From Haliotis rufescens (Eukaryota), in the NCBI RefSeq assembly GCF_023055435.1, contig NW_025963891.1, forward strand, positions 20,336,001 to 20,400,000: a DNA stretch of 64,000 nt, written 5' to 3'. The notes below the pieces were generated by a model, which was not told the DNA's origin, did no database searches, and worked only from the letters and a program-made list of their open reading frames with translations. This document shows positions 55,919-63,706 of this stretch, in pieces. A program made the position numbers and the translations under genes. Position 1 is the first letter of the stretch. The number at the start of each line of letters is the position of its first letter.

Positions 55919-58900
55919 ATGGCGCGGGTGTTGGTTGCAGGCACAGGCATCACAGGAGCGGCAACCGCGGCTGCGTTGCGTCAGGAACTACCTGAGGACG
56001 CGACGATCACATTGTGGGACAAGTCTCATGGGGCAGGTTAGCAGCAGCACGGTTCCTCCCTAATGAACAAGGCATGATAATTATGATCATTATCCAGAAC
56101 GTAGGATAATGATGTGATGTAATTGGTAGACGTGATCGAATCTCGTTACTGGCAGGTGCTTGTGTAAGCAAGGATTCTATCCTACCTAAATATTATCCCA
56201 GGAGAAGTTTTACTCTAGAGTAGGCCTATAGTAGATCTATAGGATAGGATAAAAGACACTGGTATGGGTTCAAATTCCCTAGGGAGAATCATCCTGACAC
56301 GAGAGAATTTCATCACCGGGATAAAAAAAAAATAGGGTAGGAGAATATTCACTCTTATATTGCACCCACACTCCGTGAATAAACTCGTTGACAGTACACC
56401 TGGGCATTGAGTCCTGCAATCATTTAACACGAGGGACATGCATGTTTGAAACTGATTTTACCATACCTAATCAGGTGATCAGATATAGTTTTAAACCAAC
56501 AGTTGCAGCACTGTCATGGATTTCGGATCACCTGGTATTCTGTTGTTTGAAGCGTGTCCTTTTTATTATATTTCATAACTATAATTTAACAACTGGTTTT
56601 TTTTCTGTATAATATATTGATTTCAGAGACTAGATATTAGTCTAATGTATTCCCAATAACATGTTGCTAGTTACTGTGAGATTTAAATGACACAATCTTT
56701 TCCCTACTTTATGTATACATGTGTCCTTGTGGCAGCCAATATGGTGCCATGACAGTCCTGATGAATATGCAATTCATGCTCTCTGTCATCTTCCCGAGGC
56801 AAGGGAGTTAACTGACTATGAAAGTCCAGTTTCCACCCTTGCCGAACAAGGCTGGTGTTATTTAGTTTGATTTTGGCTGGACTAACGAGTCTATGCATAG
56901 TCCAATCAAAATCGCGAACTGAAATCGAAATCCAGTTCGTAAACTGTCATGCAGAGTTCGGTCGATTGCAGGATTTGCAAAGCATGTGCAACGTCAACTC
57001 GTTGTCAACAGATATTTTCCAAATCTTTTCAAGTTTTTAATCAAGGTGCTCACATGATTTGATGCACTTCATGATGTAAGACCCGTTTTATCATAATATA
57101 GATCTCAATTGTCGATCAGATCGTCTTATCTTGGCGCCGCCATTTTGTTTGAAACAAATGCAAGTGACACGAGAGGTGGAATCTGATTGGTCAATAGGAG
57201 ATGCATAGAAGGGACATAACTCGTAACAGCCACTGGTGGCGCTACAATCGAGCCCAGGAATTCCAGCCTAGTTCAGCAAGGGTGGAACCAAGGGTCAGTT
57301 AACTCTCTTGCCTTGGGAAGATGGCTCTCTGTATAGCCAGTTAGTCATGTATTACCGTATTCGACGTAATAACCGCCCCGCTCTAATAAGCGCCCATGGC
57401 GATATTTGCTAATATATTGGCTAGTGAACAATCCCAATTAGCACCCCTTCCGATTGATCAGTGTACACAAGACATACTTATTCGTGTATAATATGTGTGT
57501 TATATGCATCCTTAATCATGGGAAATTAAATTCTGGAAAAAATATATCTGTCTTATATAAACATTTCAGGCTGTCAGCATCAACCATGAAACTTACGATC
57601 TTTCAACTCTGTTGTTTTTCACCAAAATAACATTCTAATAAGAGCCCCCTATTTCTAATTTTGAGAGCGCCATGGGCGCTTATTATGTCAAATACGGTAA
57701 TGTGGAATTAAGGAAAATGCTTTGTGGATGTCTGTTGTGTAAAGACTTCTTTTGATTATGCTCCTTTTCTATTTGTATGACCTTTCTATCAGAAAAGAAA
57801 AAAGCTCAGGTGAGCTGCAGAGCTTTGTGGCTCTAATTTTGGAATCTGTTTTTAAATTGATTTCTGTTCTGTAGGATCTCCTCATACTTTTGTCTATCTA
57901 ATAACAATTTTGCTGAGGCCAAAACCAAGTGAAAAGGTTTAGGACAACAGAAACACACAGAAATCAGTTTGGGGGCCCGAGCCAATATGGCTGTTTGATT
58001 ACCTATGTACAGGGATACACATGTAGCAGGGCATGGAGTCATCCCACAGATGACATCCTTACCTTGTCAGCTTGCTGACGGGGTTAACCTCTTTGGTCAT
58101 GTGGACAAGGCGTCCAACCTCGGATCAAAAGGTCCGTGGTTGGAATCCGAACTCGGGACTCGGAAATTTTATGGCCGCTACATTGGTGCCCAACAAGGGG
58201 CTGAGCACGTTGATATTAAATTTGAGCAAAGTAAGCCTCACTACCCAACTATGCGGCCCGGGACGTGCCTTCTGTTGACAGGGGAGTATGTAGCAGGGTG
58301 TGGAGTCATCCCACAGATGACATCCTTACCTTGTCAGCTTGCTGACGGGCTTAACATCTTTGGTCATGTGGACAAGGCGTCCAACCTCGGATCAGAAGGT
58401 CTGTGGTTCGAATCCCATTACCGGACTCGGAAATTTTATGGCCGCTACACACACTATAATGTAAATCCAACCACCTGAACTAGCCCACATGCTAAATGTT
58501 ATAAGTAAACATGTTCATTCAATTTTTTTTCAACTTTTGGATGAGCAGACTTGTGGCCATGTCAAACTCTGAATATGAACATGCCTCCAAAAGGCTGGCT
58601 GAATTTGTGGAGAATTACCTTAGTTCTAACACCTTAAACCCTTGTTTTTCTGATTTACCATCTGGGCGAAGATATCTCACTCCAAAAGTTAAATCTAAAT
58701 GATCCCAGACCTCTTTTATTCCAGTTTTTTCTTGTATTATGTTTTGTGATGCTCTGATGTAAGAAAATTGGGGCAATAAAGAATTATCTCACCTCACCTC
58801 ATAGTTCATCTACGGAGCCAAATATACTCTTATCATGTTTCATCTGTTCAAATTTCATCATGCTCTTTGGACAAGAGTTAAGCATTTTTGAGTGGGTGAA

Positions 58901-61900
58901 AATCTTTTGTGGGGTCATTCAGCGATGTCATTGTTTATTATTGACAATCATTTTTACAGGAGGTCGCATGTCAACATCGCGAAAACCAGGAGATGACACT
59001 TGCACTGTCGACTTGGGAGCTCAGTATTTCACCTTGACACCACAATACAAGACCAAGAGACAAAGGTTGATTCACAGGGACTACTTTTGTTTTGTTGATT
59101 TACAGATACATTTTTCTCTAATAAAAAAAATTATGAACTAAATTTTTGTTTTGTTTGTGATTGCAGCTCATTTCAGCTGAATCTGCAAACAGAAAAAAAA
59201 TAAAAAGACACCTTCATATATAATCAAGAGAATCTGAAGAATCAGTGAAGCAGAAATAATAAAATGAGCTGTAATTATTTAAAACATAGGGCAAATGCAC
59301 CAGAATAAATTAAATAAATGAAAACTGTCAATTTTCCTCATTGTCCAATTGCAGCCTGGTAATCTCAGTCTTCATTGCTGAAGAGTGTACAAATGACAAC
59401 AGATAACCATCACCCTCTCTGTTGCAGTCTGTTTGATGAGCTGGAGTCTGCTGGAGTATTTAAACCCTTCAAGGGCGTGTTAGAGGGAGACAACTCCGTC
59501 GACTGCCGGCATTATGTGACGCCAGCAGGAAGTGGATCTCTCGTCAAACACTACCTCGCTAAATCAGGTAATTTATGTCCTTGTACAACCCAAGCTGACC
59601 ATGAGGCACTGGAAGGTCAACAGTGACATTGCCATCTCCTCCTACCCCAGCTCATCAAATGAATATGCATTACAGCCATTAAGCTACAGTACTATGAAAT
59701 CAATGCCAATGAAAAAAGAGAGTGTCACTTACATTAAAAACTTGATGCATATTTATCTGGACATGTTGTCAGGTTCACAGCACAGAAAAAAGGACATAAG
59801 TCATTATAAAGCAGCCAGAATGAATATTACTTTCAATATTAAGATTCTTCCACTCAATACAGGGTTAATAGTCACAGCAATACCTTTGACATGATATTTA
59901 ATTAGACACAACCTGTAAAGATCAGGGGTAGAATATGTCTTCAGCAACCCATGCTTGTCGTAAAAGGCGACTATGCTTGTTGGGATCCGGTGGTCAGACT
60001 TGCTGACTTGGTTGATGCGTGTCATTGTATCCCAATTCCGTGGATTGATGCTCATGATGTCAATCACTGGATTGTCTGGTCCAGACTTGATTATTTACAG
60101 ATGGCCGTCATATAGCTGGAATATTGCTGAGTGCGGCGTTAAACAACAAACAAACAAATGCAGGTAAGCAGGGAAACAAGCGGGTATCCCAATGGCGTGG
60201 ATCGATGCTCAGGATGTCAGTCACTGGATTGTCTGTTCCAGATTTGATTATTTACAGACTGCCGTCATATAGCTTGAATATTGCTGAGTGCGGTGTTAAA
60301 CAACAAACAAACAAACAAAAGACATGGTAAACACCTTTCAATTACATGACAGCGTCCATTTGATTCAAACACTGTAAACCCTTTTTTTTTAGCTGTATAA
60401 ACCGCTATATACATTTTGGCCAACAAAATTATGTGTGTTTCTAATTTCAACCCTTCAAAATATGGTATAGGTAGGTCGTTTGGGTTTTTTGAGAGGGGTT
60501 TTTAAACCTTACTTCTTTCATAAACGGTAATTTGGTGTATGGGAGTGAAAGCAAGCTTTCAAATGAAGACAATGACTGGAGGATCTATAGCATGTATAGT
60601 TATTTTATTGTTGAGAAAAACAGAAAGAAGGGCCAGAGTTCAGATTAGGGTCAGTCACTTAGCCAGAAACACACATGTATTTAGGGGTCGTACCCAGTGG
60701 ATAAGACTGATGTATTTGTGTACAAGGTGCTGAGGCCAAGTATGAGCACCACATATCTCAGGTGGACTTCAAGTCAGGAGATGGTCAAGCGGTCCAGGTG
60801 ACAACTCAGGCAGGCACCAGTCAGGAGTTTGATGCTGTCATACTGACCATGCCAGTACCCCAGATTCTCCAGCTTAAAGGCGCCATACAGCAAAGTATAG
60901 GTAAGTGACTACTTACAGGAAATGTTTGTTGAGAGCTTGACATCTGTTTTCTTCTACTGTTATCTGTGAGCTGTAGATCCAATGTAGGGAACTCGGGTGG
61001 CCAAGTGACGTGCATGTACGTGTGTGTGTTTGTGTGGTCGCTTGTACTAGTCCGGACTGATGCCAATTTATAGTGCTAGCCCACTGAGATACCATGCCAC
61101 AGTTTAACATGAATACCCCACTCAGACACAGTATACTGACTCCGAGCCAACAAGTGCTTGTTTTAGCCCCTTAATGCCGAGCGCCAGACAGGGTAACAAC
61201 AAGTACCATCTTTTAACGTCTTTTGATATGACATCTTTTAACGTCTTTTGATATGACGCGGCCGGGGATCGAACCCTGGACCTTCCCCTCTCCGGGCAAA
61301 CGCTCTACCACTAGACCACGGAGGCGGTCGGCAGATACAGGGGTACAAGTTGACTATTCATAAGGGGAGACTAGGATTAGGGGTACCTATGGTCCAAGAG
61401 ATTCCATAGGTCATACGTTCTCAGCTGTGACCCACCGAAGGAAGTGTTACCCAGAAAAGGTCCCACGTCTTCTAAATTTGTCAATGGGGGCAGGTGGTTT
61501 TACTATTGGGGCGGTCGGGTACCCTAGTGGTTAAAGCGTTCGCTCGTCACCCCGAAGACCCGGGTTCGAATCCTGACATGGGTACAATGTGTGAAGCCCA
61601 TTTTTGGTGTCCCCCGCCGTGATATTGCTGGAATATTGCTAAAAGCAGCATAAAACCAAACTCACTCACTCACTGGTTTTACTATGTGACTACATTACAG
61701 ATCATCACACCCTGAGGATGTAAATGGTGCTAGAACTGTTTCCAAGTTATTGATCTGAGGCTATGGCATTGCTGAATGACACATAAAACTTCATTCTGCC
61801 ACTCGCTGTTAAAGTTTGAACAGCTGGATGCTGTATATATTTCAACTGGTCACTCCCATGTGAGGTTATGTCTGGAGAAGTTCTTCATCTACAGCTATCA

Positions 61901-63433
61901 TGGCTATAGCATTGCTGATGGACACATAAAACTTAATTCTGTCACTCGCTGTTGAAAGCTGAACAGCTGCATGTTATATATATTTCAGCTGGCCTGTCCA
62001 GTGTGAGGGCGTGTCTGGAGAAGGTGTCGTACTCCTCCCGGTTCTGTCTGGGTCTCTTCTACCCACCAGGAACACAGCTGCCCTTCCAGTGGGATGCCAA
62101 GTACTTCTTTGATGGTCCCTGTATACGATTTGTGGCCATAGATAACAGGAAACGAGGACTGCGTGGTAAACTATTCATAGAATAACCTAAAACTGTGCAT
62201 CATCTGTACTTACCTGGTTGGAATACACTACGTTCATCCAATCACCCATGACTACATGCTTAGCGTTAACCATGACTACACACTTAGTGTAGTCACTATT
62301 TTTACCCAGTGCATCCTGTCACGGCCTGCTCCCAGTCAGAAGGAAACCAGTGTGTATTGAGACAATTTGAAAATAACATGAACAAGAATCTGTCATCTGT
62401 CCAGAATGAATTAATTTTCAAAGTCTTGGGGGAAAAGATATTCTGTGTTGCAGAGTTTGGAGTCAGTTTATCAATATATTGCCCACCGTCTATTTTCTGC
62501 ATCTCCTTGAGGCATGGGTGTTAATTGACTATAAAAGTACAGTTTCCACATTTGCCGACCTTGGCTGGAATTATGGAGGTATATTTTGGCTGGACAAACA
62601 AGTCTGTGCATAGTCCAATCAAAATCAAAATCGACATCCATTTATGAATGCCTTACTGATTTCGGTTCATTTGTTCAGATTGTCTTGCCTTAGCCCCGCC
62701 ATTTCTTTTTAAACAAATGCAAGTGATGTGAGAGGTGGAATCTGATTGGTCAATAGGAGGGACATAGAAGAGACATAACTCATAATGGCCAGTGGTGGCG
62801 CTATGATCAAGCCCAGAAATTTCAGCCTAGTTCGGCAATGGTGGAAGCTTGACTTTAACAGTTATCTCCCTTGACTTGGGAAGACAATTTTCTGAGAAAA
62901 TGTGGAAAAGTGTGGTATCATGAACAATGGATGACTATCTTTTGTTATTTGCAACAATGTATTTGAATGACATCACGTTGCTATGAGCTTCTTTGCAAAC
63001 AGTAGAACAATTGGGACAAACCAGCCAATCAGCATAAAGCCAAAATTATAATTATAGTAATACATGTAATTACTGACATTATTCCTCCTCTATTGATCCT
63101 CCAATGGACAGTCTCAATCTTTATCACCCACATGATATATCTCTGTATGATTTTAATGAGATTGTTCCTATGGGTAATATAGCACTGTGCATGATTCCCC
63201 TTTTGGAATGACAACATAGTGATTTAGCTTGGAGGTTTATTTTGACACTGGTGTGATCTGCCTCAGATGTGCCCCCGTCGGTGCTAGTCCACACCAGCGT
63301 TCCCTTCAGCCTCCAGCACTTGGAGACAGACAAGGAGGCCATGAAGCCCCTGATCATGCAGCACCTGCGTGACATCCTACCTGATCTACCCGAGCCGGAG
63401 GTCGTTAAAAGTCACAAATGGAGGTATTCACAG
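55919..63433 (+). CDS. RNLS: Renalase (FAD-dependent oxidase), exons 1-6; last exon beyond right edge
   Basis: Exons 55919-56036 (MARVLVAGTGITG..WDKS), 58960-59065 (GGRMST..DLGAQYF), 59428-59567, 60727-60900 (FDAVILTMPVPQILQL), 61989-62165 (VSYSSRFCLGLFY..CIRFVAIDNRKR), 63267-63433 (VHTSVPF..KWRYSQ); motifs match vertebrate renalase. Confidence 0.93.
56787..57323. mobile_element. Non-autonomous element with long imperfect inverted termini
   Basis: catcttccc.aggcaag.gagttaactgac..ccacccttgc.gaac.aggctgg at both ends; related copy ~62545-62885. Confidence 0.65.
57353..57699. mobile_element. MITE (same family as 17367-17689)
   Basis: taccgtattcgacgtaataa / ttattatgtcaaatacggta. Confidence 0.8.
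58022..58449 (+). mobile_element. Miniature non-autonomous LTR retrotransposon (TRIM) with tRNA-derived LTRs
   Basis: 161-bp LTRs 58022-58182 and 58289-58449 (TGTAGC..GCTACA), 4-bp TSD CACA, PBS tggtgcccaacaaggggc (58184-58201), PPT aggggag before the 3' LTR. Confidence 0.9.
61508..61674 (+). mobile_element. Full-length SINE S1 with TSD
   Basis: TSD tggttttactat at 61495-61506 and 61674-61685. Confidence 0.9.
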
Positions 63434-63440
63434 GTAAGTG

Positions 63441-63706
63441 ACCCCTGAAGATCCAGAGTAGAATAGGTCTTCAGCAACCCATGCTTCCCGTAAAAGGCGA
63501 CTATGCTTGTCGTAAGAGGCAACCAACGGGATCGGGTGGTCAGGCTCGCTGACATGGTTGATGCATGTCTTCGTATCTCAATTGCGTGGATCGATGCTCA
63601 TGATGTCAATCACTGGATTGTCTGGTCCAGACTCGATTTATTTACAGACCGCCGTCATATAGCTGGAATATGGCTGAGCCCGGCGTTAAACAACAAACAA
63701 ACAAAA
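63441..63706 (+). mobile_element. Full-length SINE S2 with 11-bp TSD
   Basis: TSD acaggtaagtg at 63430-63440 and 63707-63717. Confidence 0.9.

Follow-up and report, generated by a model that had tools for sequence, protein, structure and literature searches.

A Helenus-type TRIM with a tRNA-derived LTR cassette in the abalone Haliotis rufescens, and its mosaics with two Gypsy families

The stretch of DNA analysed here, referred to as the window, comprises 64,000 nucleotides of the Haliotis rufescens genome (contig NW_025963891.1, positions 20,336,001 to 20,400,000). It contains a renalase-like gene, a later exon of which (60729-60899) shows 100% identity to a Haliotis rufescens renalase-like protein and 96% to that of H. 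cracherodii. Intron 1 of this gene harbors, in sense orientation, the TRIM described below (Table 1). The gene also carries MITE-like elements with TIRs at 56787-57323, 57351-57701 and about 62560-62890, one of which resembles, by eye, an insert within another TRIM copy (L082). SINE-like repeats headed by a tRNA and ending in ACTC or AAAC tails lie at 61500-61680, 59930-60320 and 63440-63705. The repeated exons at 17815-42522 are presumed, from their translations, to be astacin-like and MAM-like, and reading frames elsewhere in the window are taken on the same basis to be Tc1/mariner-, Harbinger- and RT-like.

Table 1. Features of the TRIM and its host gene (window positions) and loci of direct and complex Gypsy/TRIM mosaics
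Feature	Position	Strand	Remarks
Renalase-like gene, exon 1	55919..56036	+	exon 2 starts near 58960
Left target-site duplication (TSD), CACA	58018..58021	+	
Whole element, TRIM	58022-58449	+	428 bp, no coding sequence; two LTRs, PBS, PPT
5' LTR	58022..58182	+	161 bp, TGTAGC...GCTACA; initial 10 nt as in the Gypsy family B LTR
Hairpin GTCAGC-TT-GCTGAC	58066..58079	+	predicted U3; second copy 58333-58346
Palindrome GGGGTTAACCTC	58080..58091	+	predicted RNA 5' end; 3' LTR copy 58347-58358 with two changes
A-box-like motif TGGTCATGTGG	58094..58104	+	second copy 58361-58371; aligns to the D arm of host tRNA-Arg(TCG) L031
Anticodon-loop remnant CC-TCG-GA	58118..58124	+	family-wide; most variable part of the LTR
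B box of 5' LTR, one change (GGTTGGAATCC)	58138..58148	+	3' LTR copy 58405-58415 intact
T4 run after cassette	58167..58170	+	predicted leaky Pol III terminator; copy 58434-58437
PBS for tRNA-Lys(CTT)	58184..58202	+	near-palindromic core; three mismatches in window copy
Polypurine tract (PPT) AGGGGAGTA	58280..58288	+	adjoins 3' LTR
3' LTR	58289..58449	+	161 bp
Right TSD, CACA	58450..58453	+	
Direct mosaics (with TSD)	C2 TCAA; C25 CCCA; C45 CACA; C501 CATG; C556 CATG; C583:1.35 Mb TTGG; C594 TTAT		
Complex B/TRIM locus	C190		bounded by TGTA

An earlier note on this DNA had described most of this anatomy, and the description was borne out. The two LTRs, said to differ at about a dozen positions, are identical in 149 of 161 columns, leaving 12 differences. 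The CACA duplication on either side, the 106-bp interior and the purine tract directly before the 3' LTR are all present. The PBS does have the claimed three mismatches, counted against the complement of the 3' end of host tRNA-Lys(CTT) plus CCA, and the A box, the CC-TCG-GA loop and the B box (with one change in the 5' LTR and none in the 3' LTR) lie where they had been placed. The window copy diverges by 5-6% from young copies of the TRIM, has a damaged PBS and a damaged 5' B box, and is probably inactive. The PPT ends in GGGGGAGTA in young copies and in GGGGGTGTA in the Gypsy family A described below.

The element belongs to a real family that was recently active. The DNA search of the genome returned 1950 first-look candidates, 40 of which were scored, and at least 60 full-length or near-full-length matches with 92-100% identity to the window element were found among the matches listed, well above what chance would give. 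Exact-motif counts gave at least 247 LTR–PBS junctions and at least 1097 LTR A-box motifs, lower bounds that include arrays and segmental repeats; the reversed-pattern controls gave 0. In a scripted survey of 44 loci, both ends were resolved in 29 copies, and an exact 4-bp TSD was found in 28 of these and one with a mismatch in the remaining copy. Among 20 copies with a length of 428 bp, nine show no difference between their LTRs, in a sample biased toward the best matches. A 16-LTR array is flanked by a TACA duplication, and the genome-wide copies and tandem arrays that the earlier note proposed to count were detected. Read sets under six labels contain TRIM sequence (word shares 0.27-0.48), and the TRIM and the Gypsy B LTR are both covered in all four DNA read sets examined, which carry four labels. 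Two pieces related to the TRIM also occur in a low-share RNA contig set labelled plant metagenome. Copies or solo LTRs were observed within larger tandem repeats (about 2.25-2.5 kb; 7 kb) at G000:C1 43.92-43.99 Mb and C2 0.37-0.39 Mb, and an older array at L192:6451-8133 contains the LTR start as internal tandem repeats of 49 bp.

The cassette in each LTR had been attributed to tRNA-Arg. Four host tRNAs were compared with it; the genome-wide tRNA search scored 63 candidates, and the 200 kb around three tRNA genes contained no additional tRNA isotype. Host tRNA-Arg(TCG) aligned to the cassette end to end with a score of 63-70 and 51-53 of 73 positions identical, above all of 500 shuffles in which the A and B boxes were held fixed (maxima 49-51). 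Thr-AGT scored 53-59 (shuffle maxima 58-60), an Asp-like tRNA 40-44 and Lys 33-39. The alignment therefore favors Arg(TCG) as the apparent closest donor among the four tRNAs, in agreement with the attribution. The covariance-model tRNA score that the earlier note had proposed as a test was not obtained for the LTR segment: neither ARAGORN nor Rfam called a tRNA on the LTR, the best match being tRNA-Sec at 11.8 bits (E 6.8). Among 128 LTR contexts the anticodon loop reads CCTCTGAT in 54 and CCTCGGAT in 44. By alignment the cassette is tRNA-derived, a promoter relic that is neither a foldable tRNA nor a tRNA gene.

The proposal of tRNA-Lys(CTT) as primer gained support from the young copy L004, whose PBS matches host Lys(CTT) plus CCA at 19 of 19 positions, compared with the three mismatches of the window copy. 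The Lys(CTT) pattern has 197 exact matches in the genome, and nearly all of the 100 listed lie in an array on contig C79. This tandem array has a 297-bp period and occupies G000:C79 from about 12.77-12.80 Mb and beyond (L033-L037). The tRNA-Lys(CTT) that it encodes is the predicted primer for the TRIM as well as for three long LTR families, which were recovered by searching for exact PBS patterns with non-TRIM neighbors.

Families A and B are young sister Gypsy families. Family A has LTRs of 550-950 bp that differ at 0-9 positions within pairs, and eight of 10 loci were resolved (two of them identical), all with 4-bp TSDs. Family B is 9.2 kb long with LTRs of about 870 bp, 0-2 differences within LTR pairs and TSDs at six of eight loci. 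By Pfam, both have pol in the order RT–RNase H–integrase between the LTRs and gag upstream; their Pol sequences are 72% identical, and the gag of B has a PNMA match. The LTRs of A and B have TRIM-like ends, TGTAGC...GGCTACA, and the PBS is that of the TRIM. The B LTR starts with TGTAGCAGGG, as does the TRIM, the identity covering ten bases. Beyond the PBS and PPT, the interiors of the TRIM and of A and B have nothing in common. The third family, C, has the same PBS as the TRIM but different LTR ends. The Gypsy-type helper with 4-bp TSDs that had been suggested, and the autonomous Gypsy with shared termini, PBS and PPT that was to be looked for, both have a candidate counterpart in A and B; further helpers may exist. 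A fourth LTR-like element with the Lys PBS (L064/L093) was set aside, since 9 kb of it contained no long reading frame. One copy of family A (L118; G000:C112:24413920-24422308), with the TSD AGTG and two LTRs of 550 bp, carries an additional U5 piece in inverted orientation, linked through a symmetric PBS.

Mosaics of Gypsy and TRIM sequence were found at 17 loci. Matching 4-bp TSDs bound 11 of them, namely three inverted mosaics, all with A, and eight direct or complex ones; at the other six the TSD was not resolved. A symmetric-PBS pattern was found at seven sites. At three of these a family A LTR and a complete TRIM LTR are fused head to head, with TSDs CATT, AATC and CGAA, and the flanks of the first are unlike those of the other two. 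The remaining sites are one A/A version and three with short A-like pieces at two loci. The two halves of the inverted junctions are fused precisely at the 18-nt PBS, where 14 nt overlap as a near-palindrome (duplex -15.0 kcal/mol). The pattern in which Gypsy U5 leads into the TRIM interior was found at 12 junctions in 10 loci, and TSDs match at seven of these loci and were not resolved at three, nor were they at an older mosaic locus on C594. Mosaics with B have the TSDs TCAA, CCCA, CATG, TTAT and TGTA, and those with A or an A-type partner CATG, TTGG and CACA. The reverse pattern, from TRIM LTR to Gypsy, occurs at one junction, with a variant at C583. At two TRIM-LTR-to-B junctions, the PBS is preceded by the spacer of B and not by that of the TRIM. 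In a small control, 10 family C junctions contained 0 TRIM interiors. Family C has the same primer site and yet gave no mosaics, a hint that the partnership is determined by LTR ends or packaging rather than by the primer. At C556, 1141 bases are missing from contigs of the independent runs X1 and X5, corresponding to the 1137-bp unit plus one CATG, that is, to an empty site. The mosaics were inserted as single units.

Upstream of the A box, the TRIM LTR has a hairpin followed by a palindrome. The U3 hairpin segment was folded in L004 (z -2.99), and inspection by eye shows similar hairpins in the animal Helenus LTRs of the accessible supplement of PMC10886601. The palindrome GGGGTTAACCTC has a self-duplex energy of -17.2 kcal/mol and pairs both RNA ends in the predicted L004 fold. 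A z-score of -4.14 for the full RNA fold was not counted as evidence, as it is inflated by the repeated palindrome. In the same supplementary material, the A box is immediately preceded by an inverted repeat in 36 LTRs from bivalves, nemerteans and coelacanth. The core of this repeat is a perfect palindrome of at least six bases in 22 of the 36, with 10 different hexamers (e.g., GTTAAC, GATATC, GACGTC, AGTACT, AGATCT and GCATGC), and in the remaining 14 the center is a single base or G-T; this is a by-eye tally without a statistic, over related families that are not independent, and it leaves out LTRs lacking the repeat, such as Helenus-2_CGi and wasp families. Carp-type LTRs in that material show the same pattern (CCATGG, CTGCAG). 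Across these animal Helenus LTRs the palindrome appears to vary in sequence while staying self-complementary, making it a possible dimerization or end-pairing signal. Pairing of the palindrome with the leader of Gypsy B, around nt 70-82, was considered and rejected, this site being outside the six best duplex sites in B; as for pairing with a helper more generally, self-pairing is stronger than pairing with every site in A, B and C.

Taken together, the window element is very probably an aged copy of a Helenus-type TRIM family. This family likely uses its tRNA-Arg-derived cassette for transcription by Pol III and likely depends on enzymes of the Lys-primed Gypsy families A/B for copying and insertion. 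Its RNA is predicted to start near LTR position 59-64, to read through the T4 of the 5' LTR and to stop at that of the 3' LTR, giving about 358 nt. The RNA would be co-packaged in Gypsy A/B particles and primed by tRNA-Lys(CTT), and Gypsy integrase would use the TGTAGC...GCTACA ends. Since an 18-19-nt PBS is common to TRIM and helper, strand transfer would sometimes cross from one to the other, yielding units of Gypsy LTR, TRIM interior and TRIM LTR. The standard LTR cycle offers a basis for reading the head-to-head fusions as annealed strong-stop DNA: two plus-strand strong-stop DNAs may anneal by the near-palindromic PBS and be extended to head-to-head LTR pairs. Leaky termination could also feed multi-LTR arrays. 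The B-type spacers in two TRIM-to-B junctions speak against a simple plus-strand transfer and would need an extra switch.

That the joining took place before integration, in a shared particle, is the most likely account of the mosaics, and A and B are likely helpers on this evidence; retroviral recombination requires co-packaging according to the available part of PMC5086612. The mosaics might instead have arisen after insertion, by nesting and a subsequent deletion or gene conversion that used the shared PBS, or be assembly chimeras, and they would then name no helper. The shared PBS is long enough to be used as homology, several mosaics are complex, and no contig crossed the whole filled C556 mosaic in the runs examined. 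Nevertheless, nesting with deletion would leave host-element sequence behind the TRIM LTR rather than a TSD, whereas 11 loci have the same four bases at their outer ends, mostly one Gypsy and one TRIM end. Flanks are unrelated where tested, and the empty site in two runs removes the entire C556 unit and one TSD. An origin after insertion or in assembly is highly improbable.

With the same TRIM and helpers, the RNA could also come from Pol II, through a U3 promoter or read-through from host genes, and the cassette would be a relic. Such a source would fit the imperfect A box, the position of the 5' LTR's T4 ahead of the PBS, the lack of a tRNA fold in the cassette and the sense orientation of the window copy within an intron. 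It would have only about 58 bp upstream of the palindrome to work with, and one mosaic has a TRIM piece that begins at LTR position 59-64, the place of the expected Pol III start. Young copies, moreover, retain an intact B box, and among 12 LTR segments it shows the lowest rate of non-CpG differences, a weak signal (0.014 vs 0.016-0.031 outside the loop); difference rates are flat outside the anticodon loop, with no sign of selection on LTR segments. Small-RNA reads on a young copy numbered 0, 13 and 8 in three runs, and seven sense reads begin near LTR position 70, too few for start mapping. Transcription by Pol II appears quite unlikely on balance. The donor of the cassette may likewise have been another tRNA, such as Thr, common to older animal Helenus, the likeness to Arg(TCG) being partial. 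A host Thr-AGT-like gene comes within one point of its shuffle maximum (59 vs 60), the TCT variant of the loop is as frequent as TCG, and tRNA-Thr was called in seven bivalve families in the accessible parts of Kojima (PMC10886601). The alignment to Arg(TCG) nevertheless runs from end to end, and TCG-type copies differ from host Arg-TCG at just three of 29 positions from the D loop to the variable loop; a different donor is accordingly judged unlikely. Pol III transcription from an Arg-derived cassette with Gypsy A/B as helpers remains the preferred reading.

A wider interpretation is advanced tentatively, at somewhat less than even chances. The family may be a record of a Pol III TRIM being carried by a Gypsy particle, with recombinants that name its helpers, including an interior-free product of two strong-stop DNAs joined head to head at the near-palindromic Lys PBS; the palindrome upstream of the A box, maintained by covariation in abalone, bivalves, ribbon worms, coelacanth and carps, would be a dimerization or end-pairing signal and would mark one ancient animal Helenus lineage.

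Helenus has been defined as TRIMs with a tRNA cassette and, in animals, 4-bp TSDs (Kojima 2024, PMC10886601, in the parts accessible). The abalone TRIM belongs to Helenus, and all five defining features tested were found: a TRIM of <1000 bp, an LTR with tRNA-derived A and B boxes, a 4-bp TSD, a PBS for a different tRNA and a cassette that is not a functional tRNA. The earlier label Ajax-like had to be given up, as the tRNA-bearing class is Helenus and Ajax has 5S rRNA sequence and 5-bp TSDs in the accessible text of that source; Rfam scans found no 5S rRNA match in the TRIM LTR. According to the accessible text of PMC10886601, Pol III transcription of Helenus is not validated, helpers of animal Helenus are inferred from PBS likeness alone, how the dependence of a TRIM on its helper is maintained is stated as not known, and the main text has no mention of chimeras, palindromes, hairpins or dimers. 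Molluscan hosts in its Table S1 are Bivalvia only, and the accessible supplement gave 0 matches to Haliotis, Gastropoda or abalone and 0 to five exact abalone-TRIM motifs, of which line breaks may hide one. No published report of the abalone family or of helper/Helenus mosaics was found in a literature search; Repbase or Dfam may contain the family. New here are a gastropod member of Helenus and the indication of its helpers by genomic recombinants, which point to two helper families where earlier work relied on primer-site likeness. The dependence of a TRIM on its helper becomes testable in a farmed animal, the range of Helenus extends to gastropods, and polymorphic insertions are provided, as by the C556 empty site.

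Judged by the portions of the published accounts that were accessible, the closest relatives of the abalone TRIM are Helenus-1_CGi, Helenus-3_ArIr, Helenus-1_LiLo and the coelacanth LTR1_LCh. Helenus elements are likewise shorter than 1 kb, with a tRNA-like LTR cassette containing A and B boxes, a tRNA-Lys PBS, a PPT and a 4-bp TSD; the tandem arrays resemble those of the Helenus element LTR-11_DR, and a hairpin and palindrome also precede the A box, Helenus-1_CGi having gggttaaccc by eye. The abalone TRIM differs in its gastropod host and the Arg-type D arm of its cassette. Ajax, the nemertean TRIMp3, has a similar size (421-434 bp) and an LTR promoter derived from a small RNA, but that RNA is 5S rRNA, the primer is tRNA-Leu and the TSD is 5 bp. 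The plant TRIMp3 Cassandra also has a Pol III promoter inside the LTR and forms tandem arrays; unlike the abalone TRIM it is 5S-derived, and it shows no sign of an autonomous partner according to Kojima (PMC10886601). biv-TRIM (Satovic 2019, PMC6934838) is another mollusc TRIM, described in the available portion without a canonical PBS, with no autonomous partner found and with gastropods unmentioned. The chimeric TRIMs of sugar beet (PMC13570524, as far as accessible) are, like the abalone mosaics, template-switch hybrids that exchange LTRs; they formed between non-autonomous families, and their partners were assigned by sequence similarity.
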